21,886 nt of DNA from Rhodospirillales bacterium (GCA_038143065.1 JAYQLI010000006.1:1-21886), one strand, 5' to 3'. Shown: positions 1,253 through 18,600, counted from the first letter of the stretch. Made by a program: numbers and translations. Notes: a model not told the origin generated them from the sequence alone.

Positions 1253-1441
1253 CTACATTAAAGATGGTGGTGTCTCTGACATTTTAGCCATGCGCTGCTT
1301 GAGTTCTTTTTCGATTTTGTTTGCTTCGTATGGTTTCATCTTTTTCCATCCGGCACTTTCAGCACGAGTGCGACCACATCCTGTGCACCAGCCACTTGGG
1401 CCAGTAAACGGACATATATCCACGCAAGGACTTTTACGCAT
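1253..1441 (-). CDS. DUF1289 family small Cys-rich (predicted Fe-S) protein
   Basis: SPCxxxC...WCxGCGRTxxE...W signature of DUF1289. Confidence 0.85.
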   Translation of the reverse strand: MRKSPCVDICPFTGPSGWCTGCGRTRAESAGWKKMKPYEANKIEKELKQRMAKMSETPPSLM

Positions 1442-1472
1442 TTTTTCATCGTTTTTTGATCCTTGGATGGCC

Positions 1473-1538
1473 CTACGTCGCTGTCACAATAAATAATACA
1501 GATGCCCACTTCAGTAGCGGGATAAACCTTCTGCTCAT
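1473..1538 (-). CDS. Hydrophobic micropeptide copy 2, MSRRFIPLLKWASVLFIVTAT (21 aa)
   Basis: Translated by hand. ATG at 1538-1536 with the same AGAGG SD spacing as copy 1, TAG at 1475-1473. Confidence 0.55.
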   Translation of the reverse strand: MSRRFIPLLKWASVLFIVTAT

Positions 1539-1594
1539 TTGCCTTGCCTCTGTCTTTACCGATCTTCTTATCGGTTATGAGTGCAGGTTAACAT
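1505..1594. repeat. 90-bp duplicated module, copy 2
   Basis: Matches 831-920. Perfect inverted repeat ACCGAT-N6-ATCGGT at 1558-1575. Confidence 0.95.
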
Positions 1595-1628
1595 AGAAAG
1601 GTGTTTCAAAATTGATTATCTCTGTTTC

Positions 1629-1707
1629 AAGAAGAAAACGGCTCAACGCTAGATTACCTTTGAACCCTGCGGAGCCGTTTCCCGTTCTCCTCCCTGAAGA
1701 ACTTTGT
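1629..1707 (-). ncRNA. Candidate ~80-nt two-hairpin sRNA carrying GGGAGGAG (strand not certain)
   Basis: On the - strand: GUUCUUC-AGGGA-GGAGAAC hairpin (1702-1684), then an AAACGGCUC/GAGCCGUUU stem (1680-1636) with a UUUUCUUCUU tail. A promoter-like site sits directly upstream. Read on +, it is a cuckoo-like hairpin with a CCUCCC loop. Confidence 0.5.
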
Positions 1708-1713
1708 GCAGCG

Positions 1714-1741
1714 AGTTTGATCATTTATTGCAATGAGTCAA
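1714..1741 (-). promoter_or_regulatory. Sigma70-like promoter TTGACT-N16-CAAACT
   Basis: -35 at 1741-1736 and -10 at 1719-1714, placed just before the hairpin RNA at 1707-1629. Confidence 0.4.
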
Positions 1742-1779
1742 GGATTTGATGGCTAAGTCTAATTGTCAGAGCAAACAGC

Positions 1780-1850
1780 AAAAAAAAGACCCCGCAAAAA
1801 GCGGGGCCAGTCCAACAGGGAGTGTGGACAGTAGCCACTGTCGTGAGATA
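1780..1850 (-). ncRNA. alpha-r8/suhB-family-like sRNA (MmgR/GsrN/StsR type)
   Basis: On the - strand: CUCCCUGUUGGACU directly followed by GGCCCCGC-UUUUU-GCGGGGUC and U8, the typical 3' architecture of this family as I recall it. Promoter-like TTGACA (1883-1878)-N15-TAAGCT (1862-1857) upstream. Confidence 0.6.
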
Positions 1851-1881
1851 GAGTCCAGCTTAGTTTTGGCAAGACCGTGTC

Positions 1882-2100
1882 AAAAAAAAGAAAAGGTCGG
1901 CCCAATTGACTACAAGAGGAGTGGCCGACCAGTAGCACTGACTTCGAATATAGGGAGGTGAAGTCAGGCCCCTCACATTTCGCAAGGCAACCAATGGGAA
2001 GAGAACAATGTGCCTTGCTCGTCGAAGAGCAAGCCCCTTGTGTTTATTTGTTTTCAAAGAGGAAAGAGGCTGCTCTTCTAATGACTGTTTCGCCAGTCTA
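1882..2100 (-). ncRNA. Multi-hairpin sRNA with anti-SD loops (cuckoo/alpha-r14-like)
   Basis: Three consecutive perfect 8-bp stems (2018-1982, 1967-1938, 1930-1895) with loops containing UCUCUUCCC, CCUCCC and CUCCUC, then a long U-tail. Extra 5' hairpins at 2098-2083 and 2033-2014. Confidence 0.65.
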
Positions 2101-2107
2101 TACCCAC

Positions 2108-2137
2108 ATCATGTCTCATGTTGCGACAATCTGTCAA
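2108..2137 (-). promoter_or_regulatory. Sigma70-like promoter TTGACA-N18-CATGAT for the 2100-1882 RNA
   Basis: Perfect -35 at 2137-2132 and -10 at 2113-2108. The overlapping TGCGACAATCTGTCA (2122-2136) partly resembles a RegA/PrrA box. Confidence 0.5.
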
Positions 2138-2197
2138 GGCATAACAATATTTTGTTAGTATTCGCAACATATAGCTATGCGATTGTGGTCTTAAACT

Positions 2198-2389
2198 TCA
2201 TTCACACTCAGCAATTGCAGCGGTCATACCCATTCCTGTCGTGGTATTTACAAGCGGGATTGAGGTCGCTGCTGCCACACAATCATCAGTTTTTGTTTGA
2301 GTAGTGTCAGGGCTTACGAAGAAGTAAAGCCCAAAGGAAGCTATCCCAGCAACAAGACATATCATCGTTACAGCTAGTCCGTTGTTCAC
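2198..2389 (-). CDS. Small hypothetical membrane-anchored or exported protein (63 aa)
   Basis: GTG start after GAGGGA, N-terminal hydrophobic helix, two Cys in the soluble part. Confidence 0.5.
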   Translation of the reverse strand: MNNGLAVTMICLVAGIASFGLYFFVSPDTTQTKTDDCVAAATSIPLVNTTTGMGMTAAIAECE

Positions 2390-2489
2390 TGTAGATCCCT
2401 CTCGTAAACTTACGATCCCAAACTGTCACATGAAGTACCATCCGTGAAGAGTATACATACAAGACAAAAAGAACGGCACAGCCAGAGAT

Positions 2490-2676
2490 AGTGAGGCAAT
2501 TGTCGTGCATTCTTTGCGTCATGCGTTTCGGGATAGATTACGTGTAGTCGAGTGCCCGTCAGATCTGGATTGATCATCTTGGTGGATGGTCTCGAAATAG
2601 CATTGGGGACAAGTACGGTCGTAGATACAATCTGGCATCTCTGTTCAAATGGTTGCTTGCGATACGATTGCATTAA
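2490..2676 (+). pseudogene. Tyrosine recombinase/integrase C-terminal remnant
   Basis: Hand translation gives AIVVHSLRHAFRDRLRVVECPSDL, a frameshift near 2568, then IDHLGGWSRNSIGDKYGRRYNLASLFKWLLAIRLH*. It contains the HxxRH, LGGW and catalytic Tyr motifs. No N-terminal part upstream. Confidence 0.85.
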
Positions 2677-2822
2677 CCTATTTGACCATTATCGGAGCGA
2701 GAGTGTCTGATGCAGCAATTGGATGATAATATCCAAACAGCTAGCACACACTATCGGCACATTTTATTGCAAGCCACTTATGCATTTTCCTTGGTCTCCG
2801 ACCCACCATCTTTTGGCTTTGT

Positions 2823-3908
2823 CTATTCCTGCGATTGAACGTAAGCGAGAACTTTAATCAGTCCTAACGGTATTTCGGGGCGTAGACCGCGGGGGTGTGA
2901 GGAGGGAAACTCCCTTTTGGGAGTGTCAATTTCCCTTTTAGGTGCAGGTTTTCGCCAAATAAACTGATAGCTTTCGATTACATTCGATCGGGAAATTGGA
3001 ATTCCCGGCAGGGCGACCCAATCGGGGCAAGGGCGGTTCAAAAAGGACGTTATTGTTGTTCTTGCCGCAACTTCTCCTTGCTGAAAAGGCCGTTGGCCCG
3101 CAATACCTACGACGGAACCACCGCTTGATAGGTCAATTGTTACCTCATTCCCCAGGTCCACAGTCGTGATGGGTAGCTTAAATTCCCGTTGCGAGAATGC
3201 CTTTAGGATTTCCTCGCACGGGGTATCCCACACCGCGAATAATCCCGAAATCTCGGGGTTCTTCTCGACAAGAGCAACAGCTTCGGACCCTGCGGTTTCA
3301 ATGGATGCAAATCGGGCAGTTTTCAGTATGACGTCTGGCCGATTGATCTCGATCCACTGACCAAACGCTATTTCTCGTTCATTGGATGCAAAGAAATCTG
3401 CGTCATACCCGATAACTCCCACAATTGAATTCGGAGGCAGATGTTCCGACAAAAGTTCTGCTGCGATTTTCCCCAACCCGTAATTGTCAGCCGAAACAAG
3501 CGAAATATAGTCCTTACCCGGAAGCATGCCGATCGGGGCATTGTCAATCAACACGAGCTTTATACCCGCTCTTGCAGCAGTAACATAGGCATCGGCGACA
3601 GTCGCGTTATCGACGGGTAACGAAATAATCGCATCTGGGTTTTCAGCGCACATGCGGTTTAAAGCTTCGATTTGCTTTGCTGGGGGAAAAGTCACAATCC
3701 ACAACGTCAATTACAATAGCTCCGCATTCGCCAAGTACACCGACGATCCCTTGGACAAGATGTTGGACCAATCGCTTTCCATCGTATGCATGACGATGGC
3801 AATGCGCAGCTTCTTGACCCGGGCGGACTCTATGTCTTGAGGCAACAAAGTAACCCGCTCTGGTGGTGAGGCGCGTTCGCCATGCGGTCCTAGTCCGACG
3901 ATTGTCAT
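2823..3908 (-). CDS. RbsB/LacI-type sugar-binding domain protein lacking signal peptide and HTH (frameshifted)
   Basis: AAGGAG RBS and ATG at 3908, 11 bp after the ROK stop. ORF pieces 3711-3908, 3643-3912 and 2823-3710 join via frameshifts near 3765 and 3685. Shares IVMH..DWS, VSADNYG, ADFF, AVWDxP, ITTxDLG and QRPFxQG with the binding protein at 6316. The C-terminal end is uncertain. Confidence 0.8.
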
Positions 3909-3919
3909 TCAAGTCTCCT

Positions 3920-5269
3920 TCATATTTCTGGCGGAGGGGGAGGCCCGTCTACAAAGGTTTGCGCCTTGTTGGCTGCATGAGTCAAGCTCTGCACAAATTT
4001 CGGGTGTTTGGTGGGGGCGCCGAGGATAATCCAGTCTTTCAGGAAAACCGGATCGAATAGAGCTTCGATCGCTATGTTGGCGGCCCCCAAAAGAGCGGCG
4101 GAACTGCTCATTTGTGATTTCAGGATGCGCAAATCCCGAGTGACCAGAGGGTGCGATGCGCCATAAACGGCTTCGCGAAAGCTGGCCAACAATATGTCGT
4201 TTGATTGAGAAATTGATCCGGCAAGGACAATGAGTTGCGGATTTAGCATGTTGGCCAAGGTGGCCACGACACCCCCTATCAGGCGTCCGCTTTGTACGAC
4301 AATTTCGGTGCTGGCCGTATCTCCCATTTGGGCGGCCTGACACACATCTATTGCGTTCACGTCGCCAGTGCGGGCCAAAATGTCAGCCAGTTGAGGACAT
4401 GCACCAGATGCGGCGACGGCGGCGCCCTGCGCCTTCATCATGCCGGACCCGGCCATTGCATCCAGTGTGCCTGTCATGTCGTTGTAATGGACCGGAAGTT
4501 GTCCGATCAGGCCGACGGCGCCTGATGAGCCATGATAAAGATGTCCGTCATTGACCAACCCTGCTCCGATGCGTTGCCCGACTTTTACAAATAGCATGGA
4601 CTGCAATCCAACGCCTGCCCCACCGTGGAATTCACCCATTGTCATGGTCTCGACATTCGAACGCATCCAAATCGGAGCTTGAAACCTTTGCGTCAGTGTT
4701 TCGATCAGGCCGGATCTGTCCCAGTTGGGAAGAAAATCAGGTGTCTCTGAAAGAAATGGGGTTTCTGCGTTGGCAAGGACTGGACCCGGGACAGAGATCG
4801 ATATTCCCCATAGATCAACACTACCTGTCTGGCGGGATATCATCCGTTTGATCAAGGCGCTAATTCTGTCGACTGTCATGTTCTGATTAGCGATATCGAT
4901 AAGTTCGTGGTGTTCTGCCAGAATTTTGCCGCTCAGGTCTGCAATCCCTACACCAACGGCCGATTGCTCAAGGTTGACGACCGCCAAGCGCGCTCGGTCT
5001 TTGATAATTTGGACAAGCCTGGGCGCCCTTCCGCCAGTCGCTGCACCTGTGGCGCTTTCGTCGACCAGTCCCAAATCCTTAAGTGTGGCCAGCCTGTCTG
5101 CGACGATGGCACGTCCGTATTCTCCGACGCGTTCCAGTTCCTGACGGGTTGTTGCGCGCCCTAAACGAACAAGGTTCAGGACATCCACAAGGCTTGCGAC
5201 GGCGGACTCGGTATTGCGTGGCCGCCCTTTTCCTTTGGATTGATTCGCGTTTGAAATGCCAGTTTCCAC
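3920..5269 (-). CDS. ROK family transcriptional regulator (NagC/XylR-like)
   Basis: N-terminal HTH with GGRAP, then GISISVPGPV, IGAGLV..G.LYHG..GAVGLIG, LNPQLIVLAG and AALLGAA motifs. Intact 449 aa. Confidence 0.92.
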   Translation of the reverse strand: METGISNANQSKGKGRPRNTESAVASLVDVLNLVRLGRATTRQELERVGEYGRAIVADRLATLKDLGLVDESATGAATGGRAPRLVQIIKDRARLAVVNLEQSAVGVGIADLSGKILAEHHELIDIANQNMTVDRISALIKRMISRQTGSVDLWGISISVPGPVLANAETPFLSETPDFLPNWDRSGLIETLTQRFQAPIWMRSNVETMTMGEFHGGAGVGLQSMLFVKVGQRIGAGLVNDGHLYHGSSGAVGLIGQLPVHYNDMTGTLDAMAGSGMMKAQGAAVAASGACPQLADILARTGDVNAIDVCQAAQMGDTASTEIVVQSGRLIGGVVATLANMLNPQLIVLAGSISQSNDILLASFREAVYGASHPLVTRDLRILKSQMSSSAALLGAANIAIEALFDPVFLKDWIILGAPTKHPKFVQSLTHAANKAQTFVDGPPPPPEI

Positions 5270-5336
5270 GAATTTTCTTCTCTCACAACTCTACTTGCTC
5301 GACAATAGTCGGTCTAATTTTGCATGGCAAGTAACG

Positions 5337-5391
5337 ACTTTTGCATAAAAAAAGCAAAAGATATGATACTTAAGCATAAAAAATGTTGACT
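5337..5391. promoter_or_regulatory. Candidate ROK operator and divergent promoter region
   Basis: Inverted repeat CTTTTGC-N9-GCAAAAG (5338-5360). Direct repeat ACTTnnGCATAAAAAA at 5337 and 5368. TTGACT -35-like hexamer at 5386-5391. Confidence 0.55.
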
Positions 5392-5455
5392 AAGATGTAA
5401 TTATCGACTTATCAACTACCTCGACGGCGCAATCAGCCGACTGGAGGAGAGTGAA

Positions 5456-6268
5456 ATGAGCGAATGGAAGCTGGCTTATCAGGCGAACTGTTGGGGTGAT
5501 CTTGGTGGTAATGCCGAAGGCGTGACATCGATCACACAGCTAAGTTACCGAACCTTTGGCGACATAGATCGTGCCTGCGCCGAAATCGCAGCGGCAGGTT
5601 ACGCTGGCGTTGAATTGTTTGATGGTAACCTGCTGGACTACAGCGCCGCCGACTTTCGCGGCCTGCTGACCAATAACGGTTTGGCGCTTGTGGCTGCCTA
5701 TTCAGGTGCCAACTTCATTTTCGACGATATCCTGCCCGAGGAGTTGGCCCGCATCACCCGTGCCGCTGACCGCGCCGCCGAGTTGGGCGCGCCGCATCTG
5801 GTGGTGGGCGGTGGAGCCAAGCGTTTTGATGGTATCCGCGATACCGACTATGACAAACTGGGCGCTGCATTAGATCGCGTTAAGGCCTTGGCCGAGGAAC
5901 GCAGCCTGACCGCTCATTACCACCCGCATCTTTCAACGATTGTTGAAGGTCCGGCCGATGTGAGCAGAATTTTCGACCTAACAGCGATAGATTTCTGCCC
6001 CGATACCGCACATTTGGCAGCGGCCGGAGGCGACCCGGCGCAACTGATCCGCGATCACGCTGACCGCATATCCTACATTCATCTTAAAGGGCTTCAAAAC
6101 GAACCTTTTGCGTTCACACCGCTGGATCGCGGTGATGTGCCGACCGACCCGATTATCGCCGCCATGCGCGAGACGCAGTTCACCGGATGGGTCTGCACCG
6201 AACTAGATGCCTGGGACGACCCTGCCGAAGGTGCACGTGCCAGCATGGACTACCTAACCCAAGCCTAA
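5456..6268 (+). CDS. Sugar phosphate isomerase/epimerase TIM barrel; candidate 3-keto-levoglucosan beta-eliminase (LgdB-like)
   Basis: GGAGGAG RBS. GYAGVEL, YHPH, PDTAH, YIHLK and ELD metal-ligand motifs of the xylose-isomerase-like barrel. Specific role inferred from the lgdA context. Confidence 0.75.
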   Translation: MSEWKLAYQANCWGDLGGNAEGVTSITQLSYRTFGDIDRACAEIAAAGYAGVELFDGNLLDYSAADFRGLLTNNGLALVAAYSGANFIFDDILPEELARITRAADRAAELGAPHLVVGGGAKRFDGIRDTDYDKLGAALDRVKALAEERSLTAHYHPHLSTIVEGPADVSRIFDLTAIDFCPDTAHLAAAGGDPAQLIRDHADRISYIHLKGLQNEPFAFTPLDRGDVPTDPIIAAMRETQFTGWVCTELDAWDDPAEGARASMDYLTQA

Positions 6269-6315
6269 TCGGTTTATTTTCACGGGGTTCGCCCCATCTT
6301 CTGGGAGGAAGAACA

Positions 6316-7429
6316 ATGTTTACACGTAGAACACTTATGGGATCGGTTGCCGCGATTGCAATTGCTCTTAGCGCTATGCCGGCAGCGGCAGATCCGACCG
6401 CAGCTTTGGCTGCGCTTCAGGAAAGCGTTCTGTCCAAAGGACCGAACGGCGAGGACAAGCCCGGCGGCTGATCTGTCGCTGAGCGGTGCCGAGATCGACC
6501 AGATCAAAGCTATGAATGCAACTGCGGCGATTGTTATGCATTACGGCGGAAACGATTGGTCGCGTGCACAGATCGAAGGTTTGAAATTCCAGTTCGCTGA
6601 AATGGGTATAGACGTTATCGCCGTCACTGACGCTGGCTTTAAGCCAGAAAAGCAGGTGGCAGATATCGAAACTGTCATGGCGCGTCAGCCAGATATTATC
6701 GTATCTGTTCCCACTGATCCGGCAGCAACTGCTGCAGCGTACAAAGCGGCTGCGGAAGCTGGTGTGAAAATCGTGTTCATGGAAAATACTCCTCCGGGCA
6801 TGACTGCCGGCGAGGACTATGTGTCGGTTGTGTCAGCCGACAACTACGGCAACGGTGTTGCGGCAGCCCATCTGATGGCGGACGCCCTTGGCGAGGATGG
6901 CGGTCAGATCGGTCTGGTTTATCACGCCGCGGACTTCTTTGTGACGTCAGCGCTATGACGCATTCAAAGCAACCGTTGAGGCAACTATCCTGAGATCGAA
7001 ATTGTTGCCGAACAGGGTATTGGCGGACCGGACTTCACTGGCGATGCAGAAAAAGTGGCCCGGCCATGCTAACCTCTCGGTCTGATATCGACGGCATTTG
7101 GGCTGTTTGGGATGTCCCTGCCGAAGGTGTAATTTCGGCTGCACGCGTCGCTGGTCGTAACGATCTAATCATCACCACGATCGACTTGGGCGAGAACGTT
7201 GCCATCAACATGGCACAGGGCGGTTTCATCAAAAGGCCTGGGCGCGCAGCGTCCGTTTGATCAGGGTGTCGCCGAAGCGATGCTGGCGGGTTATGGCCTG
7301 CTGGATAAAGCTGCCCCTGCCTTTGTTGCCCTGCCGGCACTTCCGGTCAGCAAAGACAACCTTCTGGAGGCTTGGCAAACAGTTTATCGCACAGAAGCCA
7401 CCAAAAACATCCAAAGCAGCATGAAATAA
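6316..7429 (+). CDS. Sugar ABC transporter substrate-binding protein (RbsB-like, Tat-type signal; frameshifted)
   Basis: GGAGGA RBS and MFTRRTLMGSVAAIAIALSAMPAAA signal. Pieces 6347-6958, 7066-7260 and 7199-7429 join through about five 1-bp indels. Confidence 0.85.
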
Positions 7430-7438
7430 TCATGCACC

Positions 7439-7469
7439 GGTCCTGCGGAGCCTCCCTTGCCGCAGGACC
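7439..7469 (+). other. Intercistronic stem-loop after the binding-protein gene
   Basis: Perfect 10-bp inverted repeat GGTCCTGCGG/CCGCAGGACC with no U-tail. Typical of mRNA-stabilising hairpins in ABC operons. Confidence 0.65.
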
Positions 7470-7500
7470 ACCCCTTACCACATTTTGACGGAGCTTTCCG

Positions 7501-8664
7501 ATGACTAAGACCTTAAACGTTGCCATGATTGGCGGCGGTTTCATGGGCAAGGCGCATGCCATGGCCTATGCCGCAATGCCAATGTTTTTCTGGCCCGCCC
7601 CCGCAATTCCTCACCGCAAAGTGGTGGTCGATCTGACCGAAGGTGCAGCGCAAGATGCCCGTGACCGTTTTGGTTTTGACGAAGCTTCGAGCGACTGGAA
7701 AGCAACCGTCAACCGCACTGACATCGATATAGTGGATATTTGCACGCCCAATAATGCCCATGCTGAGATTGCGATTGAAGCACTGAAGGCGGGCAAACAT
7801 GTAATTTGCGAAAAGCCTTTGGCGTCGACGCTCGAAGAAAGTGTTGCCATGGTCAAAGCGGCCAGGGCCTCGGGCACAACGACGATGGTTGCCTTCAATT
7901 ACCGCCGCACACCTGCGGTAGCGCTGGCCAAAAAGTTCATCGAAGAAGGAAAGATCGGTGACGTGATCAATTTCCGTGGCACTTATTTGCAGGATTGGTC
8001 GGCTGATCCAAATGGTCCGTTGTCGTGGCGCTTTCAGAAAAGCATCGCGGGCTCTGGTGCGGTCGGAGACATTGGGACCCATGTTGTGGATATGGCCCAC
8101 TATCTGGTTGGTCCGATTGACACCGTTCAAGCCATTACCCCAACCTATGTGAAAACCCGCCCTATCCAACAGGGTGGCCTGGACAAGCTGGGTGCATCAG
8201 ACAAATCTTCAGATGCGGAACGCGCCCCAGTTGATGTGGACGATGAAGTTATGTCGATGGTGCGCTTTAAATCGGGGGCGATTGGCAGCATTGAAGCCAC
8301 CCGCAACGCCTGGGGTCGCAACAACTTCCTTACGTTAGAAATACATGGCACCAAGGGGTCAATCCTGTTCAACTATGAACGCCGTGATGAATTGCAGGTG
8401 ATGTTCGCCGACGATACCGGTGAAGCGCGAGGTTTCCGGACTATCTATACCGGTCCAGCGCATCCCTACGGCGAAGGTCTATGGCCAATCCCCCTGCGCT
8501 TGGTATAGGCTATGGCGAAACCAAGATCATCGAATGTTACGATTTCTGCAAAGCCATTGTCGATGGCACCAGCCGTCGCCGAATTTTGAAGAGGCTCTTT
8601 TGACGGAAAAAGTCGCGGATGCCTTGCTGCGGTCGGGTGAAAGTGGCGCGTGGAGTCCATCTGA
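7501..8664 (+). CDS. lgdA: Levoglucosan dehydrogenase homolog (Gfo/Idh/MocA family; 3' end frameshifted)
   Basis: Carries stretches I recognise from Pseudarthrobacter phenanthrenivorans LGDH: [63 protein letters not shown] and [16 protein letters not shown]. After a frameshift at ~8492 it continues [13 protein letters not shown]. Likely stop is TGA 8662-8664 overlapping the next ATG. Confidence 0.85.
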
Positions 8665-10236
8665 TGTCAACTGTTGCCGTCCGCATGACGGGCATTTCCA
8701 AACACTTTGGTGGCGTCAAGGCTCTCGATAACGTGGATTTTGAGGTCTTCGCTGGTGAAGTCCATGCCCTTCTGGGCGGCAACGGTGCTGGCAAATCAAC
8801 CATCCTGAAGGTTCTGAACGGGGTTCATATACCCACCGCCGGAACGATCGAGGTGGCCGGCGTCCCGCTGACCACCCACACACCTCGCTGCATCCCGTGC
8901 CGCAGGAATTGCCATGAACTATCAGGAAATGAGCCTGATACCGACGCTTACAGTGGCGCAGAATGTATTTCTGACACGCGAACCCCTGACAGGCGGGATG
9001 ATCAACGACAAAGAGGCCGAGCGCAAGGCGGCTGAGTTGTTCCGTATGTTAGAGGTCGACATTGACCCTTCCTCGATTGTCGGAGATTTGGGAGCAGGGC
9101 AGAAGCAACTGACCGAGATTGTTAAAGCGATCTCGCAGGATGCGCGGGTTCTGGTACTGGACGAACCCTCGACTGCGTTGGCAGTGTCGGATGAACCGTC
9201 TGTTTACCTTTCTGCGTAAACTGAAATCCCAAGGCGTGGCGATTATCTATGTCAGCCACCGCATGGATGAAATTGCCCGAATTGCCGATCGTGCCACAAT
9301 CCTGCGGGATGGTAAGCATGTGACCACGGCCGATATGGCTGATCTGCAGATTGACACCATGATCGAACATATCGTCGGCAAACGCTCGCTAGGACTGGCG
9401 GATGTCGAACGCAAAGACGTCATACGCGGCGATATTGCGCTGGAGCTGCGCAATGTTTGCGGGCGCGACAAGCCTCAGAACATTTCGTTGAGCATCCACA
9501 AGGGCGAGGTTGTGGGACTTGCAGGTCTTTTGGGATCAGGCCGGACATCTTTGGCAAAGTTGATCGCGGGCATTGAGCCGATCACCTCGGGAGAGATCCT
9601 TATCAACGACCGCCCCGTGAACATTCGCCGTCCAAGCGATGCTATAGCGGCCGGCGTGGCGCTGGTGCCCGAGGCGCGTGCGACCCAAGGCATTATTCCG
9701 GCACACTCGGTTGCCGACAACGCAACTCTTGCGGTGCTCGACGATCTATCCAACGCCGGATTTGTTGATGTCAACAAGTTGCGCCAAACGACTGATGCCC
9801 AGATAAAGAGCTTGTCGATTAAAACCGCCAGTCGAAATCATGCAGTCAGCACTTTGTCCGGCGGTAATCAGCAAAAGGTTGTCATTGGAAAATGGTTAGC
9901 TGCAGACCCCGACGTGTTTGTCTTGGACGAACCGACCGCGGGTATCGACATTGGCTCCAAATCCGAGATCATCCAAATGGTTCGGGATCTGGCGGCCAGC
10001 GGTAAGGCAATCCTGATGATTTCATCCGAGTTATCAGAACTGCTGACCGCCTGCGACCGCATCATCGTGATGGCAGACGGCCGCGTCTATGATGACATCC
10101 CTCATGTCGATCTGGAAGATCCTGCCGAGGTCAATTCCAACGCTGCCCATAGATTGCAGCTCGCCGAACAACGACTGCAAATCGCAATTCAAGAGGCCCT
10201 GACCGCAGGGCAGGAGGTTTCAATGGTCAACGCTGA
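8664..10236 (+). CDS. Sugar ABC transporter ATP-binding protein (RbsA-like, two ATPase domains; frameshifted)
   Basis: GGNGAGKST Walker [16 protein letters not shown], then [17 protein letters not shown] and LDEPTAG. Frameshifts near 8885 and 9195. Probable true stop is TGA 10234-10236. Confidence 0.88.
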
Positions 10237-11191
10237 CACAAATCCAACGTCAAAGGCATTTAACGCGTTTCTGGCAAACTGGCGCCAAAACATCATCTAC
10301 ATTGGCTTTGTTGCGATCTTTGTAATCTTCGCCCTGACGCTGAACGACCGCGGCTTTTTGAACATGAACAATCTACTGAACATCGTGCGCCAGACAACCA
10401 TGATCGCGGTGATGGCTGTTGCAATGACTTTCGTGTTATCGGCAGGTGAGATTGACCTGTCCGTAGGAGCGGTTGCCGGGCTCGCCAGTGTAAGCGTGGC
10501 CATGGCGATATCCGTCGCCGGACCTTTTGGCGGTATAATTGCCGGATTGGCGACCGGGATCGCGATCGGTGTGTTTAACGGCTGGCTGACGACCAAAATA
10601 GGCATCCCATCGTTCCTGACCACGCTTGCCATGATGGGGATCGCAAAAGGCATCGCTATGTGGGTCTCTGATACTGCTGCGGTTCCGATCCTTTCGCAAA
10701 GCTATGCCTGGTGGTTCGGCGGAGGCTCAATAGGGCTTGTGCCGGTTCTGTTGTTTTGGATGCTCATCTTCGGTGCTGTTGGTCACGTCGTGCTGCGCCG
10801 CACCAGCTTCGGTCGCCGCGTTCTGGCAACTGGCGGTGGTGAACAGGCGGCCAGCTATTCCGGCATTAATACCGCCCGCATCAAGTTTCGAGTGCTGGTT
10901 CTTTCATCAACAGCAGCGGCAATTGCGGGAATGCTCTATGCGGGCCGTTTGCAATCGGGTCGGTTCCAGCTGGGAGAGGGCGACGAGCTTTCGGTTATCG
11001 CTGCCGCAGTGCTGGGTGGTACATCTTTGTTCGGTGGTAAAGGCACAGTGATAGGCACCATTGTTGGGGCTTTGATGATCGGTCTGATCAACAACGGTCT
11101 GATCCTGATGGGGCTGGAGTTCAGCCAGCAACTGATCGCCCGTGGTGGCATTATCATCTTAGCCGTTGCGCTAAGTCAGAAAAGGAGCTGA
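10223..11191 (+). CDS. Sugar ABC transporter permease (RbsC-like)
   Basis: Own CAGGAGG RBS before ATG 10223. GEIDLSVG, IPSFLTTL, FGRRVLATGG and IAAAVLGGTSLFGG motifs. Confidence 0.92.
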   Translation: MVNADTNPTSKAFNAFLANWRQNIIYIGFVAIFVIFALTLNDRGFLNMNNLLNIVRQTTMIAVMAVAMTFVLSAGEIDLSVGAVAGLASVSVAMAISVAGPFGGIIAGLATGIAIGVFNGWLTTKIGIPSFLTTLAMMGIAKGIAMWVSDTAAVPILSQSYAWWFGGGSIGLVPVLLFWMLIFGAVGHVVLRRTSFGRRVLATGGGEQAASYSGINTARIKFRVLVLSSTAAAIAGMLYAGRLQSGRFQLGEGDELSVIAAAVLGGTSLFGGKGTVIGTIVGALMIGLINNGLILMGLEFSQQLIARGGIIILAVALSQKRS

Positions 11192-11194
11192 TCC

Positions 11195-11497
11195 ATGACA
11201 CATGTCACCATTATCGGCACCGTTACGGCAAAACCTGACACCCGGGAAGAACTGTATGATCTACTCGCAAGCCAAGTTGACCCAACGCGGGCAGAAGAAG
11301 GCTGCATCAATTATGATTTTCACGTTGATGCAAAAGACCCCTGCTGTTTTGTTTTCTATGAAAACTGGCGAAGTCAGGCAGATTTGGATGCGCATCTGGA
11401 AATGCCACATCTAAAGCCGCTGTTTACACAACTTGACAGGCTGCTGGACTGTCCTGTCGATATCCGCCACCTGAACATGATAAGCGAGATGGCGTGA
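11195..11497 (+). CDS. Antibiotic biosynthesis monooxygenase (ABM)/YgiN-like dimeric barrel protein
   Basis: TRAEEGCINYDFH...FVFYENW.SQADLDAHLEMPH signature, 100 aa. GGAG RBS. Confidence 0.88.
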   Translation: MTHVTIIGTVTAKPDTREELYDLLASQVDPTRAEEGCINYDFHVDAKDPCCFVFYENWRSQADLDAHLEMPHLKPLFTQLDRLLDCPVDIRHLNMISEMA

Positions 11498-12551
11498 TGG
11501 CATCGCAGATCAAAGGCCCCGCACTATTTCTGGCTCAGTTCGCCGGAGATGAGGCGCCGTTTAACAACCTTGAAAACATCACGAAATGGGCGGCGGATCT
11601 GGGTTACAAAGGGGTGCAAGTCCCAACCATCGACGGGCGCCTGTTTGATCTGGAAAAGGCTGTTGCTAGCGATACTTATATTGACGATGTAAAGGGCATT
11701 TGCGCTGAAGCTGGTGTTGAAATCACTGAATTGTCGGTTCACCTGCAAGGTCAGCTGGTGGCGGTTGCGCCCGCGTACAACGAAGCCTTTGACATCTTCG
11801 CTCCGGAAGCGCTACGTGGTAAACCGCAAGAACGGACCGAGTGGGCGGTGGATCAGGTCAAAAGTCGGCAATTGCTTCCGAGCGTCTTGGCCTGAGCAAT
11901 ATAGTCGGTTTCACGGGCTCTCTTGCTTTCCCGTTTCTTTATCCTTGGCCGCAGCGCCCGCAGGGCTTGATAGAAGAAGCCTTTGCCGAACTGGGTCGTC
12001 GCTGGAAGCCCATTCTGGATTTCTATTCGGAACAAGGTCAGGATCTTGGCTTTGAAATCCATCCTGGCGAAGATGTGTTTGATGGTGCGACGTGGGAGAT
12101 GTTCCTGGATGCTGTGGATGGCCACAAGTCCGCTAGGATCACCTATGACCCAAGCCATTTTGTGCTGCAACAGTTGGACTATCTGGCGTTCATCGATCTT
12201 TACCACGACCGGATCAACGCTTTCCATGTCAAAGATGCCGAGTTCAATCCCGATGGCCGTCAGGGCGTGTACTCGGGCTATCAGAACTGGACCAATCGCG
12301 CTGGCCGGTTCCGCAGCCTTGGCGACGGTCAGGTGGATTTCGCGGGAATTTTCTCGAAGCTGACCCATTATGGCTATGACAGTTGGGCTGTCATGGAATG
12401 GGAGTGCTGCATCAAATCACTCGAGCAGGGTGCGGCCGAAGGTGCTCCGTTTATTGCATCACATCTGATCGACGTCACAGACAAAGCCTTTGACGATTTT
12501 GCCGGTGGCGAACGGGACCAAGCACAAATCAATCGGATGCTGGGACTATGA
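11497..12551 (+). CDS. Sugar phosphate isomerase/epimerase TIM barrel; candidate 2-hydroxy-3-keto-glucal hydratase (LgdC-like; one frameshift)
   Basis: KGPALFLAQF, GYKGVQ, FEIHPGED, YDPSH, FHVKDAE and EWECC motifs. ORFs 11494-11895 and 11841-12551 join near 11860. ATG overlaps the ABM stop. Confidence 0.75.
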
Positions 12552-13636
12552 AGAAACTGAAACTCGGAATGGTTGGCGGTGGCCAAGGGGGCTTTATCGG
12601 AGGCGTCCACCGCTTTGCCGCGCGGTTAGACAATCGCTGGGACCTGGTTGCAGGTGCGCTTTCGTCAAATTCGGAACGGGCGGCGGCTTCGGCGACAGAA
12701 TTGGGGCTAAAACGGTCTTATGCATCCTATGAACAAATGGCGGTTGCAGAAGCTGCTATGGGGGATGGCATCGACGCCGTTTCAATTGTTACCCCGAACC
12801 ACATGCACGCTGGTCCGGCGATTACCTTTCTGAACGCAGGCATCCATGTGATTTGCGACAAACCTTTAGCCGCGACGCAAGAGCAAGCAGACGCGATTAA
12901 AAAAGCGGCGGCCAATTCGAGAGCGCAGTTTTTCCTGACCCATAATTACACTGGCTATCCTTTGGTCCGTCAGGCGCGGAAGCTTGTCGAGGCCGGTGAA
13001 TTGGGCACCATTCGCGTTGTTCAGGCAGAATATGCGCAGGACTGGCTGGCGGAAGAAACCCACAATAAGCAAGCCGATTGGCGGACTGACCCGAAGCAAG
13101 CGGGTGCGGGCGCGATTGGTGATATCGGCACCCATGCGTTTAATTTGTTGTCCTATGTCTCGGGACTGAAAACCGAAGCGCTGTCCGCCGAGCTGCATAG
13201 CTTCGTGCCAGGTCGTCTGGTCGACGACAACGCGCATATCCGCTTGCGGTTTAAACGCGGTGCGAAGGGTCAGGTCTGGGCCAGTCAAGTGGCAATCGGC
13301 CACGAAAATGATTTACGTCTAAGCATCTACGGCGACAGGGGCAGCCTTGAATGGCGTCAGGAAAATCCAAATCAGATGCGTTTCGCAAAATTTGGTCAAC
13401 CTCCACAGACCTTGACGCGCGGCTATGGTGGAGACGCCGGTACGCGTATTCCGCCCGGACACCCAGAGGGATATCTTGAGGGCTTTGCAAATATCTACTC
13501 GGACGTCGCCGATGTGATATCCGGTGTGGGAACTGGATCCGAGCTACCCGATTTGAACTCGGGACTGGAAGGCATGTGGTTCATCAAAGCCTGCCTCGAA
13601 AGCTCGGAACAGGATGGAGTTTGGGTGGACCATTGA
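12548..13636 (+). CDS. Gfo/Idh/MocA oxidoreductase; candidate 3-keto-glucose reductase / glucose 3-dehydrogenase (LgdD-like)
   Basis: GMVGGGQGGFIG, VTPNHMH, CDKP, DIGTH and PPGHPEGYLE motifs. ATGA overlap with the upstream gene. Specific role inferred from context. Confidence 0.8.
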   Translation: MKKLKLGMVGGGQGGFIGGVHRFAARLDNRWDLVAGALSSNSERAAASATELGLKRSYASYEQMAVAEAAMGDGIDAVSIVTPNHMHAGPAITFLNAGIHVICDKPLAATQEQADAIKKAAANSRAQFFLTHNYTGYPLVRQARKLVEAGELGTIRVVQAEYAQDWLAEETHNKQADWRTDPKQAGAGAIGDIGTHAFNLLSYVSGLKTEALSAELHSFVPGRLVDDNAHIRLRFKRGAKGQVWASQVAIGHENDLRLSIYGDRGSLEWRQENPNQMRFAKFGQPPQTLTRGYGGDAGTRIPPGHPEGYLEGFANIYSDVADVISGVGTGSELPDLNSGLEGMWFIKACLESSEQDGVWVDH

Positions 13637-13929
13637 CCTATCCCCAGAAAACAAACACCCCTTTGCCACTGGCCTGTTTGTCGAACTCTTTGTAAGCGCG
13701 GTCAGTACCGCCTAACAACAAGCGGTCCGAGAAGATGTTGTTCACTTTCACGCCATGATCAGCGATGAAATACGCGCACTCTTTCAGGCTTTGTCGCAAA
13801 CTTTGTGGGAAGAAGAGACGTCTTTTTGTAATAACGTCGATACCTTGGCCCGTTGAGTGGCCTCCCACGATTGACATGACAGTAAATCGTTGGAAATCAG
13901 TGGTTTAACCTGGAGATAACTTAGAAAAT

Positions 13930-13974
13930 CAGAGAGACGTTGGGCTAAGGACCCAACGTCTCTCTGGGGCACCA
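13930..13974 (+). mobile_element. Candidate att site: 15-bp inverted repeat overlapping a tRNA-3'-end-like fragment
   Basis: CAGAGAGACGTTGGG (13930-13944) / CCCAACGTCTCTCTG (13952-13966), running into CTCTCTGGGGCACCA. That resembles a tRNA acceptor end with CCA (Leu-like). No complete tRNA is present. Confidence 0.55.
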
Positions 13975-14000
13975 CTTTTCACACATACATGTAATTAAAC

Positions 14001-14033
14001 GGTACCATTTTTATTGGGTACGATTTTGGGTAC
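14001..14033 (+). repeat. Short direct repeats resembling integrase arm-type sites
   Basis: TTGGGTAC at 14014-14021 and 14026-14033. GGTACCATTT at 14001-14010 recurs at 14264-14273. Confidence 0.5.
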
Positions 14034-14656
14034 ATTTAGTTTTCACGGTCTGAGCTGGTACTTTGCCTCGTGCCCGCGCGCGACGCTGTGCTTTACTATG
14101 CTCTGGCCTGCCTCTCGCGCCTGCGTGCGCGACTTGATCATCTGCGCTGAAGTTGGGGTCTACGCGTGCGCCCGTGCGCGACCGAGGTGTCAATGCGTAT
14201 TGCTACATCACCAACCCCTTATTCTGTGCATTCCTCAAAAGGTTAGACTTGGGTGGTATTGTTGGTACCATTTATGGCGTTCTCCAGTTTCATCTGCAGT
14301 TATGCACTAACAATTACCATGGACCAGTCAGATGAGGCTGCTCACGGCATTTCTTTTTCAATCTATTGCACGAACGCATTTATTCTGAAGGGTTGTGGGG
14401 TAATTTATCTCACAAAAACTCTGCATTTAATTTGATGGAGAGGAGTGCGGTTCTTGTGTACGCGCATAGAAATTCTACTCGCATTAATCTTTCGCTGCGC
14501 AACCTTTAACAATAATAAATACGAGCTTTACGTTGACCCCTCTCTCATTGATAGGTTATCCGTCGAGCCATCGTATGAAATAAGTTAATTGATCATTGAT
14601 GCTTTGGTTTGATTGTCATGCAGCACCTGGTTGCAAGCATGCCAAAATAGATCCTA

Positions 14657-15175
14657 TCAATCGTTTATATATGAAAACTTTACTGGTTTTGCATCATCTG
14701 CTTTGATAGAGTGCAACATCCTTTCTATGATGTGTTTCACATCTGGAATATCAATAGCGGCCCTTGCTGAGCCACTCTCAGTTGTTGTGATCCTGAAACC
14801 CCTATCGTATTTCTCGATGTATCCTAAGTCTGCAAGATGGTTTAGTTTGTTACTCACTGTAGATTTGGACAGCCCAAGTCTATCTGCAATGGACCTAACT
14901 GAATACCGCGAGATGTCGGACAACCAATTTTCAGGTCGAGGGGCGCTCGATACCAGTGCTTGCTCAAACATTACGATTAAGACTAAAGCACCACTCAAAT
15001 CACCGTCAAGTTTTTTCGTGATAGACCCTACGGTGTCAACACTAGCAGTCGCAAAATACAACCAACTACTTAAGTGTATGTTCATTTCAAAAACATTATT
15101 CGAGCTTGCCACCTTCTTACCTTTCTTACTTAGTCCGCGATATTTTAAATATCCGAAATTTGGACTATACATCAT
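14657..15175 (-). CDS. Winged helix-turn-helix DNA-binding protein
   Basis: SVRSIADRLGLSKSTVSNKLNHLADLGYIEK HTH. Divergent from the giant protein gene. The N-terminus may extend further through frameshifts. Confidence 0.7.
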   Translation of the reverse strand: MMYSPNFGYLKYRGLSKKGKKVASSNNVFEMNIHLSSWLYFATASVDTVGSITKKLDGDLSGALVLIVMFEQALVSSAPRPENWLSDISRYSVRSIADRLGLSKSTVSNKLNHLADLGYIEKYDRGFRITTTESGSARAAIDIPDVKHIIERMLHSIKADDAKPVKFSYIND

Positions 15176-15649
15176 GCCGAGATTATCCTGAGCGTGTTAC
15201 AAGTTGAACGTGTAACTTTGACCACCATACCATCTGCTTTATTCCTAGCAAGCTTATCAAATGACTCAAAAAGTATCACTTGATAAAGTAGATTTCAGAG
15301 CAACTGAAGGGAGTGACGTTGGGTATTTTGTAATTACAAGAGAAGGCTATTTGTCGGTTGCCCTGGAGTGTGTACTAACCTTTTCTCAAACAGCTAAATG
15401 TGATTTCGCGCAAATCACTGTCGAGGCGTGTAGTGACATGACCCACCACATCAACTTTGCCAGTGGTTTCTTTTACGTCTCCTAGCATTTTTTTCCGGTA
15501 TCGTTGTTTGCTAGTATTGAAGTACAATCGTGTCCAAAATTTGGACTTTTGTAAGTTGTTTAATTTTCGATGCTGCTCTAACCGTTGTTAGAGTAAGGTC
15601 TTTAATGCTGCCAATGACAGCCTATAAGACCGCAATTCCGGAGATTAAT

Positions 15650-18600
15650 ATGCTGCCAAAAATCAATGTCTATTCCTCAGATTTTTCGGCTGAGGAGGGA
15701 TCTAATACCGCATCATTTACCTTTACCAGAACAGGTGAACTTCAGAATGAACTGTCATGCGCTGTCGCATTTGCCGGAACGGCTGTAAGTGGTGTTGATT
15801 TCGAATCCTTGAGTGAAACCGTTAATTTCGCAGTTGGTCAAGACACGGTCACACTTCTGATAAACCCAAAATCTGACAGCACATTAGAAGGAGCAGAACT
15901 TGTCACCTGCACTATTCAAGACAATGCTGCATATTTAATAGAAAACGCCTCAGCGACGATTAGCATAAGTGACAAAGGATATGTTGATGACGGTTTCGTC
16001 GCAAAGCTAGATGATACTTTCTTATTACATAGTAAGCCTGATGCCAAGCATACTATTTACCTAGATTTCTTTGGCGGTGATTATTACACCTACAACACAA
16101 TATTGCCTTATAATTCGGATGGCGACGCTTCCAACCTGTCTGATGCTGAAAAGCTAGAAATTCAAAAAATCTGGGCTGGGATAGCGGAAGATTTTGCTCC
16201 TTTCAATATCGATGTCACGACTGAAACGCCGGCAGATGGTGCGCTGGTAAATACAGGCGGTGATGACGACGCGTGGGGTGTTTCTCTTCTGATTGGGGAG
16301 GAAACGACAGGATATGGTTTTGCGTGGTCTGGGAGTGAATTCCCCCTGGATTATGCAGCGCCCGGTTATGTATCAATTAACAGTCAGTTCCAAGATGGTA
16401 TTTATCCTCTAACCGTAATCGCTACGGGTGGAAGCCACGAAATTGCACATACGATGGGCTTGAGCCATGATGGTCCAGGTTCTGGGGGATACTACTCGGG
16501 CCATGACACGACAGTCGGGCACTGGAATACCATTATGGGTCTATCAACCAGTGGTCTTACTCAGTTTAGCAAAGGTGACTACGCAAATGCCGATAACACT
16601 GAAGATGATCTTAGCATCATTGCAAGCGACCTAAATGGGATTTCGTACATCGTTGATGAGCATGCGGATGAGCGTAGTTTTGCGACTGAGCTCGTCAAAT
16701 TAGATGATGGCTATGGATCGCTCTTTGCTCAAGGCATAATCAGCACCAGCGACGATGTGGACTGGTTTTATTTTGATCATTCAGGCGGCTCGATCGTTCT
16801 AAATGTTGATGTCGCAGAGTTCAGCCCGGAATTTACACGCAGGTGCTTGGTTATATGACTCAAATGGAGGTGAGCTGATTGCTTCAACAAGTGAGTCCTC
16901 ATTGTCTGCTGCGATTATTTCCCCCAATCTCTCAGCGGGTCGATACTATTTAAAAGTAGATGGGATCGGAAACGATAGTGGCGGTGGCTACACTGATTAC
17001 GGCAGTCTGGGGCAATATGAAATTTCCAGTGGTGTAGGTGTACTTGCAAGCTACGACCCTGATAATCAGTCTGCCGGGGATAGTATCGCAGGAACCACGC
17101 AGTTCTCCTCTTTGTCGCTTGGTGGATTGAGTGGGGCGAGCGTTGGTAACAGCATGTGGGAGGATGTTTGGGCGTTATGGTGGGATGCACGTAGTCAGAT
17201 TGATACCTCTGAATATATCAGCTTTGCCGTGACGCCCGGAGGTAATGAGGAGCTGGCGCTGTCTAGTTTGAGTGCTTCGTTCTACTCATTTTCCCCTGGC
17301 GAAACTCACGTGACACTACGTTCTAGCCTGGATGATTTTACCAATGACATTGACACTGAAAAGGTCCTCGGCGGCAACTCAGCCACCTTAATTGAGTTTG
17401 ATCTTGAAACATTGCCGCGTGTCGATGCGTCAATTGAGTTTCGTCTACACATGACGAGTGATCGGGCTCCGGTTTCCGTTATTTGACGGGCTCAAACTAC
17501 CAATATGATACGAATGCTCAAGGTATCAAACTTGTGGGGCGTGTCCTCAGTCAAAGTAACGCAGACACTACGCCAAAAATTATGGGGTCATTTGATTTTG
17601 GCTATGAACTAACCAGCACTGAAGTTGCCGTCGATGCTACATTAACAGTGACAACCTCCAATGTCGAAGATGGTCAGTTAGTGACGTTGGCGCTTAATGG
17701 TAAGACGTATACTGGCGAGGTATCGGCAAACCGGGCTCAAATCGTGGTAGAAGCAACTGACTTAATGGAACTAAGTGCTGGTGCTGTCAGTTACACGTTA
17801 TCCGTATCCAACAGCGCTAACATCCCTGCCGCTGATTATGTCTCTGAATTTGTCTATGATCTTGCGGCAGAGCGTCCTGCATCCGCTCAAAGAGCGACGA
17901 ATATTAATGAAAAAGTTCGACTAGATCAGCAATTTAATGAGCTTGTCAATGAATCGAGTAGCGAAGTTGCTCTGATTGAAATTGTCAGTGGACCAGTCCG
18001 TGGATCGCTTGAAAATGACGCTCAAGGCCACTGGTATTACGTGCCTGACCAAAATTACCTAGGGGATGATAGCTTTTCTTTTCGTGCTACCAGCAGTTCT
18101 GGAGAAGTTAGCGAGGTGATGGCCTTCGATTTAATGGTCAAAGATGTGCCAACCATTCAGCCAACTCCAGAAAACCCATTCAGTCCTTCAAGTAGTTCTT
18201 CTGCAACCGGGACGCTGTTGGCAGAGGCAACTGCTCGTCAAATCATGGCGCCAGAATTTGTGACTGCGGACCCAACCGCAGGAGTTTTGTATGGTGCAAT
18301 CGCAGAAGATGCTGCGCGTGTTACCCGTGGGGTGAGCTTGGACGTCGCCGAACAGTTTCTTGACCCTGTTACGGCTCAGTCGAGTACATACTATACAACC
18401 GGACTTTATGCCGCTCCCGGTGAATTAGTTTATATCGAAGTCCCTAGTGAGATGGTGGGCATCGGTGCAAAAATAAGGCTCTCTACATGGAATGATAATC
18501 TCTCTGGTCGAAGTGAGTGGGATCGCGCACCTTATGCAATATCTCGAATTTACGATATTGATGAACCCATCATTAAGGTTGCCGGTGCGTTTGGTGGGCT

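Follow-up and report, generated by a model that had tools for sequence, protein, structure and literature searches.

We assign the block at positions 2823-13636 of a 21,886-nucleotide (nt) contig filed under Rhodospirillales bacterium (GCA_038143065.1, JAYQLI010000006.1:1-21886; the whole stretch is hereafter the window), with a probability of about 0.72, to an alphaproteobacterial ten-gene form of the levoglucosan dehydrogenase (LGDH) pathway, present as a compositionally foreign insert in the genome of an uncultured Roseobacter-group bacterium. Levoglucosan, which serves as the standard tracer for biomass burning, is deposited into the sea; to our knowledge, its marine consumers have been little studied. 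An initial annotation of the window had described a levoglucosan uptake and catabolism cluster of foreign composition, and this core reading is upheld by the family match of the dehydrogenase LgdA, by synteny and by GC content.

Family assignment of the dehydrogenase LgdA

The gene at 7501-8664 encodes a protein of Gfo/Idh/MocA architecture (PF01408 at 1.2e-26, PF22725 at 3.3e-33, and PF02894 at 2.3e-19). Its largest open piece (335 amino acids [aa]) matched the crystallised LGDH of Pseudarthrobacter phenanthrenivorans (PDB 6A3F) over residues 3-332 with 515 bits (E = 5.9e-154), the runner-up in the PDB reaching only 1.7e-87. By hand count of the alignment, about 219 of 330 aligned positions were identical (~66%). 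With an offset deduced from a 20-residue tag, E104 and H194 align with the catalytic residues E103 and H193 (names as in Kaur 2023).

The NCBIfam equivalog "levoglucosan dehydrogenase" (NF052479) has a curated cut-off of 650 bits. The window piece scored 617.8 bits while covering just 330 of the 386 profile positions, and an intact 387-aa allele that is 99% identical over this piece (P0122, the representative of a cluster of 239 sequences) scored 702.1 bits, above the cut-off. The orthologues from the Paracoccus zhejiangensis J6 plasmid pPZ03 (NZ_CP025433.1) and from Pseudoroseicyclus sp. CXY001 reached 717.9 and 713.5 bits, respectively. When 20 proteins from loci fetched by LgdA were scored with the same profile, the 8 members of the LGDH clade gave 585 to 742 bits and 9 from the next clades 285 to 448 bits; the remaining 3 gave no match.

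A maximum-likelihood tree of 87 rows was built from 76 of the 80 genome_contigs loci fetched by LgdA (4 were left out, with matches below 250 aa or open reading frames [ORFs] below 300 aa), 8 database proteins, the Paracoccus plasmid protein, and the two oxidoreductases of the window; the characterised LGDH enzymes were not among its rows. The window LgdA fell within a 20-row clade (Shimodaira-Hasegawa-like approximate likelihood ratio test [SH-aLRT] support of 97), in which all 12 rows with a known neighbourhood had an LgdB1-type gene nearby, and inside an 11-row alphaproteobacterial subclade of it (SH-aLRT of 100). Named relatives at 79 to 80% LgdA identity include Nereida, Donghicola, Marinovum, Planktomarina, and Histidinibacterium. 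The protein thus groups inside the LGDH clade by the 6A3F match, by NF052479, and by the tree, and the initial call of an LGDH at 7501-8664, which had been staked on this grouping, holds. By family, 7501-8664 is the levoglucosan dehydrogenase LgdA; the 66% identity to the crystallised enzyme predicts an NAD+-dependent oxidation at C3.

The ten-gene unit and its predicted pathway

ORF listing and Pfam scans of the window delimited a unit of ten genes, in the order SBP2 (a second periplasmic sugar-binding protein), ROK regulator, LgdB1, binding protein, LgdA, ATPase, permease, ABM protein, AtHYD-type hydratase, and Gfo/Idh/MocA reductase (Table 1). All folds that the initial annotation had listed for 5456-13636 are present on the plus strand, and the single operon claimed there fits the junctions: neighbouring genes overlap by 1 nt (TGA/ATG) at 8664 and by 4 nt at both 11494 and 12548, and are 3 nt apart at 11191/11195. 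Such short or overlapping junctions are consistent with one operon from 5456 to 13636. The start of the unit had been set too far in, at 5456; the conserved unit begins at 2823, and the divergent ROK gene and SBP2, both overlooked, belong to it, as does the ABM gene at 11195-11497, which was missing from the list. Nor is the island "complete" as sequenced, with 5 of its 10 genes frameshifted. A ribosome-binding site (GGAGGAG) precedes the ATG at 5456, and promoter-like hexamers, which are consensus matches only, were found on both strands of the intergenic region (5340-5367 on the plus strand; 5392-5363 and 5330-5302 on the minus strand). Promoter-like sites were in slight excess in 2500-14400 (14 versus 8.9 expected). 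Terminator-like sites were not enriched there (11 versus 13.0 in shuffles), and neither kind of site gives a basis for an operon boundary.

Table 1. Features of the block 2823-13636, their amino-acid identity to the pPZ03 counterparts in a frameshift-aware protein alignment, and the frameshift sites
Feature	Coordinates	Strand	Basis	Identity to pPZ03	Frameshift sites
Second periplasmic sugar-binding protein (SBP2)	2823..3912	-	Pfam Peripla_BP_4, E 4.2e-26	55% (326 of 336 residues of the intact protein)	~3763, ~3672
ROK-family transcriptional regulator, 449 aa, intact	3920..5269	-	Pfam ROK, E 6e-32	58%	
Divergent intergenic region, AT-rich	5270..5455	.	sequence inspection		
LgdB1-type xylose-isomerase-like TIM barrel, 270 aa, intact	5456..6268	+	Pfam AP_endonuc_2 (PF01261), E 2.2e-30	83%	
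Periplasmic substrate-binding protein (SBP) with signal peptide	6316..7429	+	Pfam Peripla_BP_4, E 5.8e-23, middle piece	75% (370 of 373 residues, frameshifts allowed; no in-frame stop)	~6460, 6950, 6985, 7065, 7237
Levoglucosan dehydrogenase LgdA (by family)	7501..8664	+	PDB 6A3F, NCBIfam NF052479, tree	81%	~8495, ~8570, ~8650
Double-domain sugar ABC ATPase, CUT2 type	8664..~10236	+	two Pfam ABC_tran domains	70.5% (515 residues)	~8892, ~9199
ABC permease	10223..11191	+	Pfam BPD_transp_2, E 5.4e-36	84%	
ABM-domain protein ("quinol monooxygenase YgiN"-like), 100 aa, intact	11195..11497	+	Pfam ABM, E 2.6e-18	71-73%	
AtHYD-type TIM barrel (predicted hydratase), ~351 aa	11494..12551	+	C-terminal piece versus PDB 8RO4 (residues 122-349), E 8.8e-101	70.5% (352 residues)	~11864
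Second Gfo/Idh/MocA oxidoreductase, 362 aa, intact	12548..13636	+	Pfam; best PDB match 3V5N, E 3e-127	55-57%	

The same unit was found on plasmids. Megablast of the window against plasmids returned 9 records, the best being pPZ03, a mobilizable plasmid on which all ten genes are intact and stand in identical order and orientation. The conjugative plasmid pAtCFBP6626a of Agrobacterium tumefaciens (CP039918.1) likewise carries all ten, intact and in this order, adjoining a Tn3-family transposase and a recombinase. These cassettes resemble that of the window in gene content and order, with amino-acid identities of 55 to 84%, and differ from it in being intact, plasmid-borne, and of 65% GC, whereas the window copy has 54% GC in a context of 44 to 47% GC; no plasmid or transposon gene is in view around the cassette in the window. 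The closest relative in genome_contigs is a chromosomal locus of Pseudoroseicyclus sp. CXY001 (L001), which is colinear with window positions 2937-11185 (69% nucleotide identity over 5.8 kb and 49 to 85% amino-acid identity). The first seven genes are common to both; within 7 kb downstream, L001 has no homologue of the ABM protein, the hydratase, or the second oxidoreductase.

The LgdB1-type gene is the second gene upstream of lgdA. Of the 80 loci fetched by LgdA, 12 have an LgdA at least 57% identical to that of the window, and in 11 of these the LgdB1-type gene (34 to 74% identity) and the genes for binding protein, ATPase, and permease are all present near lgdA, the twelfth being a 2.8-kb contig. 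Only 5 of the remaining 68 loci gave a match to the LgdB1-type protein, and a weak one (25 to 29%). We read 5456-6268 as LgdB1 because a homologue accompanies lgdA, which mirrors the report that an LgdB1 of ~275 aa stands near 253 of 265 LgdA orthologues, along with ABC transporters and ROK regulators (Kaur 2023). The window protein was 74% identical to that of Pseudoroseicyclus and 77% to that of the Agrobacterium plasmid, and its identity to the genes in the LgdB1 position was 43 to 50% in actinobacterial loci and 34 to 37% in Lachnospiraceae loci; BsLgdB1 and PnLgdB1 are 55.5% identical to each other (Kaur 2023, Table S4). An AlphaFold2 model of the protein had a mean pLDDT (predicted local distance difference test) of 90.9. 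Neither the PDB sequence matches of 5456-6268 nor the fold matches listed for the model included an LgdB1 structure, and AtOGE (8BVK), the eliminase of A. tumefaciens, was absent from both; the fold search did not separate an eliminase from a dehydratase or an epimerase. From its conserved adjacency to lgdA, the gene is a predicted 3-keto-levoglucosan beta-eliminase.

The last two steps were approached through PDB 8RO4, which by its entry title is AtHYD of A. tumefaciens. The pPZ03 orthologue of the window hydratase matched it over residues 3-348 (E = 2.8e-151), and on this close homology we predict 11494-12551 to be a 2-hydroxy-3-keto-D-glucal hydratase. There is preliminary evidence that AtHYD hydrates 2-hydroxy-3-keto-D-glucal, upon which the Gfo oxidoreductase of its operon, with NADH, gives glucose (Bitter et al. 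2023, PMC10628242). The second oxidoreductase of the window has an uncharacterised oxidoreductase (3V5N) as its best PDB match. It stands directly 3' of the AtHYD-type gene in the window, on pPZ03, on pAtCFBP6626a, and on the Phaeobacter gallaeciensis plasmid pGal_D78, and within ~3 kb of such a gene in 3 Dyadobacter loci. We do not call it an LgdC orthologue; it is proposed to do the same job as partner of the AtHYD-type hydratase, and by analogy 12548-13636 is a predicted NADH-dependent 3-keto-D-glucose reductase. In the literature examined, an AtHYD-type hydratase with a partner reductase was not found assigned to a proteobacterial LGDH pathway.

Both genes are nearer to the Phaeobacter plasmid module (81% for the C-terminal part of the hydratase and 67% for the reductase) than to the two plasmid cassettes (64 to 73% and 55%, respectively), which hints at a mosaic origin. 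On pGal_D78 (L082), the region 538-10104 is LacI controlled and comprises an ABC transporter of the CUT1 type, a TIM barrel of 247 aa, and a Gfo/Idh/MocA gene besides the AtHYD-type hydratase and the reductase; this locus probably encodes a further pathway of oxidative glycoside cleavage. With the hydratase-reductase pair standing beside a differing set of transporter, TIM barrel, and Gfo genes, the pair looks like a portable back end. The reductase alone matched 58 Phaeobacter plasmid records.

Among the transport and regulatory genes, the ATPase was AraG/XylG/RbsA-like in NCBIfam, below the cut-offs, and the permease was 83 to 85% identical to that of L001. The ROK regulator, transcribed divergently from the catabolic operon, was NagC/Mlc-like, also under the equivalog cut-offs. 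SBP2 is an orphan binding protein whose gene shares the orientation of the ROK gene, both in the window and in loci L001, L081, and L083; the window ORF continues for ~35 codons after the point at which the pPZ03 protein stops. SBP2 may serve as a sensor partner or provide a second specificity. The ABM gene is flanked by the permease and hydratase genes in each of the three ten-gene cassettes (59% identity to the pAtCFBP6626a protein) and is absent from the Phaeobacter hydratase-reductase module.

In the pathway that we propose, the ROK regulator, possibly with SBP2, would control the divergent promoter. Levoglucosan would be taken up by the ABC importer (binding protein, double ATPase, and one permease), which is of the CUT2 class and has a putative specificity for this sugar. 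LgdA would oxidise C3 with NAD+ to give 3-keto-levoglucosan, and the LgdB1-type TIM barrel, judged by its conserved adjacency, would open the 1,6-anhydro ring by beta-elimination, yielding 2-hydroxy-3-keto-D-glucal. This product would be hydrated to 3-keto-D-glucose by the AtHYD-type TIM barrel, as its homology to 8RO4 suggests, and the second Gfo/Idh/MocA enzyme may then reduce 3-keto-D-glucose to D-glucose with NADH, in analogy to the Gfo oxidoreductase encoded with AtHYD in A. tumefaciens.

Oxidation, beta-elimination, hydration, and reduction are the steps that the window would share with the lgd cluster of Bacillus smithii S-2701M (Kuritani et al. 2020, PMC7676230), the enzymes of which are named LgdA, LgdB1, LgdB2, and LgdC, and not LgdA to LgdD as the initial annotation had it. 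Both clusters draw on the same two protein superfamilies, have an adjacent sugar ABC importer, and encode an LgdA of the same equivalog family. They differ in the regulator (ROK in the window, LacI in B. smithii) and in the number of permeases (one versus two). The hydratase of the window is of the AtHYD type, whereas LgdB2 occurs mainly in Firmicutes according to Kaur 2023; the reductase is ~30% identical to Gfo genes of Firmicute and actinobacterial LGDH loci, and the ABM gene and the second binding protein are extra compared to B. smithii. The O-glycoside cleavage operon of A. tumefaciens (GlycDH, AtOGE, AtHYD, and a Gfo oxidoreductase; Bitter et al. 2023) follows the same pathway logic and has a homologue of the hydratase, followed by a Gfo/Idh/MocA gene. 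Its first enzyme, however, is a flavin-type GlycDH with a twin-arginine translocation (TAT) partner, in place of the NAD-dependent LgdA predicted for the window.

Alternative readings and the frameshifts

Several observations weigh against the assignment to an LGDH pathway. Two members of the LGDH clade, L006 (613.5 bits) and L009 (584.7 bits), scored under the 650-bit cut-off of NF052479, and this cut-off is therefore no sharp clade boundary. Fold matches of the LgdB1-type model were spread about evenly over IolE (the best, with a TMq of 0.81), epimerases, AtHYD (0.73), and 3-keto-glucoside lyases (0.69 to 0.76). The second oxidoreductase was only 27 to 32% identical to the Gfo genes near lgdA in the actinobacterial and Firmicute loci L003-L011, some of which are LgdA itself, and in the tree it stood outside the LgdA clade on a branch of length 1.35. 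The function of AtHYD is called "preliminary" by its own authors (PMC10628242), and no assay of the cassette enzymes from any alphaproteobacterium was found in the literature examined; that LgdB1-type protein, hydratase, and reductase act on intermediates derived from levoglucosan is a prediction. The ABM protein and SBP2 are without an assigned role in the pathway. Finally, half of the genes are broken as sequenced, and among these an intact near-identical allele was sought and found for LgdA.

Some of these points bear on the substrate. The cassette might handle another 1,6-anhydro sugar or glycoside in seawater (such as cellobiosan-type anhydro-oligosaccharides or an algal glycoside) by the same chemistry, levoglucosan being a laboratory proxy. 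The back end is generic: it serves O-glycoside cleavage in A. tumefaciens, and on pGal_D78 the ABC transporter, TIM barrel, and Gfo genes next to it are of another set, under a LacI regulator. The cassette also includes an orphan binding protein in addition to the first, and the specificity of its transporter is putative. Our literature search found no publication connecting levoglucosan with roseobacters and no discussion of its use by them, the papers pairing levoglucosan with Rhodobacter* being unrelated. We nevertheless consider another substrate unlikely. The window LgdA matches proven LGDHs at the equivalog level, and the LGDHs characterised in an actinobacterium and in B. smithii share only ~70% identity with each other (Kaur 2023), which is the same distance as that of the window LgdA. 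The front-end genes, moreover, co-occur with LgdA across phyla.

Whether the assigned pathway would work in this organism depends on how the frameshifts are read. At least 13 were found in the island: 12 frame changes, 2 of them in LgdA, emerged from the alignment to the intact pPZ03 proteins, and the third LgdA break emerged from the comparison with the 99%-identical intact LgdA. SBP2 has 2, SBP 5, LgdA 3, the ATPase 2, and the hydratase 1. The ATPase, in addition, has no stop of its own as sequenced and runs in frame into the permease (~10200-10236), whereas in two relatives the two reading frames differ and overlap by 8 or 14 nt; if one base is missing here from the T run before the permease ATG, putting it back would give a 14-nt overlap, as in Pseudoroseicyclus. 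If all these frameshifts were real, the cassette would be a decaying relic and levoglucosan catabolism would have been lost, perhaps as part of genome-wide pseudogenisation. The gene-poor flanks (one DUF1289 gene and one small RNA [sRNA] in 1-2800, and nothing recognisable in 13637-14650) would suit such a history, as would the giant M60/cadherin gene on the right flank, which is likewise broken. Over its 1791 codons it showed ~18 frame changes relative to an intact 83%-identical relative, some of which, being closely spaced near the 3' end, may be alignment artefacts.

The character of the breaks makes a relic quite improbable. No nonsense codon was found in the ~3,400 codons of the island or in the ~1,790 of the flanking gene, and amino-acid identity to the relatives was high on either side of each break. 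No large deletions were seen, with 326 to 384 residues of each guide protein covered, and the intact 99%-identical LgdA allele is common. Wherever a break could be located to the exact base, it was in or next to a homopolymer: near the 3' end of LgdA, two of the three amount to the loss of one base from a run of three (C3 and G3), and the third abuts a C5 run. When the LgdA frame was followed through these breaks, it ended at a TGA at 8662-8664 that overlaps the ATPase ATG, in accord with the end coordinate of 8664 given by the initial annotation. As the breaks occur window-wide, consist of indels only, fall in homopolymer contexts, and are accompanied by a common intact LgdA allele, sequencing or assembly error is favoured over decay. 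The frameshifts are most probably homopolymer-type errors of this kind, and the organism would then probably have a working levoglucosan pathway.

An inositol (iol-type) catabolic cluster, as the automatic names "inosose dehydratase" (given by the Joint Genome Institute [JGI] to cluster members of 5456-6268) and "myo-inositol 2-dehydrogenase" would have it, is scarcely credible: IolE and IolG were the second-best NCBIfam families, and IolE was also the best structural match of the LgdB1-type model, but the block has no IolB, IolC, IolD, or IolA, and we rejected the reading on family scores (126.4 bits against a cut-off of 355 for IolG, and 83.7 and 59.9 bits against 290 for IolE), the LGDH model scoring five times above IolG.

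Composition, host, and wider occurrence

The GC content of the block 2823-13636 was 54.0%, compared to 44.4% in the left flank, 43.5% in 13637-15652, and 46.6% in the M60 gene. GC at third codon positions was 0.50 to 0.63 in the island genes and 0.38 to 0.41 in the flank genes. The spot counts by which the initial annotation had called the block GC-richer than its flanks (38/60 and 25/60) were exact. Its integrase scar and att-like site could not be substantiated: of 49 flank segments (stop to stop, at least 45 aa, from 1-2854 and 13641-15560), none matched an integrase or recombinase family in Pfam at an E of 1 or below, ARAGORN found no tRNA or transfer-messenger RNA (tmRNA) gene, and no direct repeat was seen to bracket the block among the 20 largest of the 52 families of direct repeats. 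From the GC contrast and the plasmid-borne relatives, it is fair to infer horizontal acquisition. At 54% GC, compared to 65 to 69% in the relatives, the island suggests a different donor or partial amelioration.

The guess of a Roseobacter-group host gained support from two flank features. An sRNA at 1782-1849 on the minus strand matched SorX, which we take to be a Rhodobacter sRNA, with 47.9 bits against a gathering score of 46.6 in Rfam, over the full model length and with a terminator hairpin and a U tail, indicating a host akin to the Rhodobacterales. In the whole window, only SorX reached its gathering threshold, the overlapping SorY, GcvB, and anti-hemB matches remaining below theirs. 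Among the 9 named relatives of the flanking DUF1289 protein, 8 belong to the Roseobacter group or the Rhodobacteraceae (Phaeobacter [2], Epibacterium, Sulfitobacter, Tateyamaria, Thalassobius, Shimia, and one "Rhodobacteraceae bacterium"), and the ninth is labelled a Gemmatimonadetes metagenome-assembled genome. The best reading of the host is a low-GC, uncultured member of the Roseobacter group.

The proteobacterial LgdB2 and LgdC steps were left open by Kaur 2023 and reportedly also by Arya 2022. What the window offers is a full LGDH gene set in a Roseobacter-group genome, with concrete candidates for the hydration and reduction steps that are unassigned in Proteobacteria. Proteins of the set also recur: the exact LgdB1-type and ABM protein sequences were found on 82 and 97 metagenome contigs, respectively, and the 99%-identical LgdA allele stands for the 239-sequence cluster. 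The type of cluster and its pathway are already published (Kuritani et al. 2020; Kaur 2023). The supplement of Kaur 2023 lists, among 265 LgdA orthologues, 28 from Rhodobacteraceae and 2 from Roseobacteraceae, including those of Planktomarina temperata RCA23 and of pPZ03, so that the novelty implied at first does not extend to rhodobacteral LgdA or to the gene of the pPZ03 cassette.

More tentatively, the findings may be joined into a wider proposal, which as a whole we regard as possible rather than likely: an abundant, uncultured, low-GC pelagic Roseobacter lineage would have acquired and kept a plasmid-type ten-gene cassette, catabolism of pyrogenic anhydrosugars would be widespread in marine roseobacters (relatives of Planktomarina, Nereida, Marinovum, and Donghicola), the AtHYD-type hydratase and the reductase would be the "missing" proteobacterial LgdB2 and LgdC steps, and the ABM protein would be a fifth component of the pathway. 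In a bolder variant, the true marine substrate would be a biogenic anhydro sugar and not smoke-derived levoglucosan.

Further features were noted in the flanks. A 90-nt direct repeat (831-920 and 1505-1594, 83% identical) carries, on the minus strand, a Shine-Dalgarno-like stretch, an ATG, and the conserved start (M..R..IPLLKW) of two small ORFs. As a candidate RNA it was rejected, with 0 of 20 pairs of the folded repeat covarying; it rather looks like the shared 5' end of the two small ORFs. A short way downstream of the second repeat copy, in another frame, is the DUF1289 gene (1256-1483, minus strand; Pfam E = 2.8e-15), and a further frameshift may join the two. To the right, 300 nt past the last cassette gene, 13930-13966 holds an inverted repeat of 15 perfectly matched bp around a 7-nt loop that scored as a minus-strand terminator (16 pairs, followed by a T-rich tail). 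The giant gene at 15653-21018 on the plus strand encodes a secreted-type protein with Calx-beta, M12-like, Big_9, cadherin-like, and M60 peptidase domains, which aligned with 1791 of the 1793 residues of its 83%-identical relative and is here split among many ORFs. Between these two, 14657-15175 on the minus strand encodes a 172-aa winged-helix protein whose MarR/IclR/ArsR-type helix-turn-helix is at residues ~90-125; at 40% GC, this part of the window is its most AT-rich.

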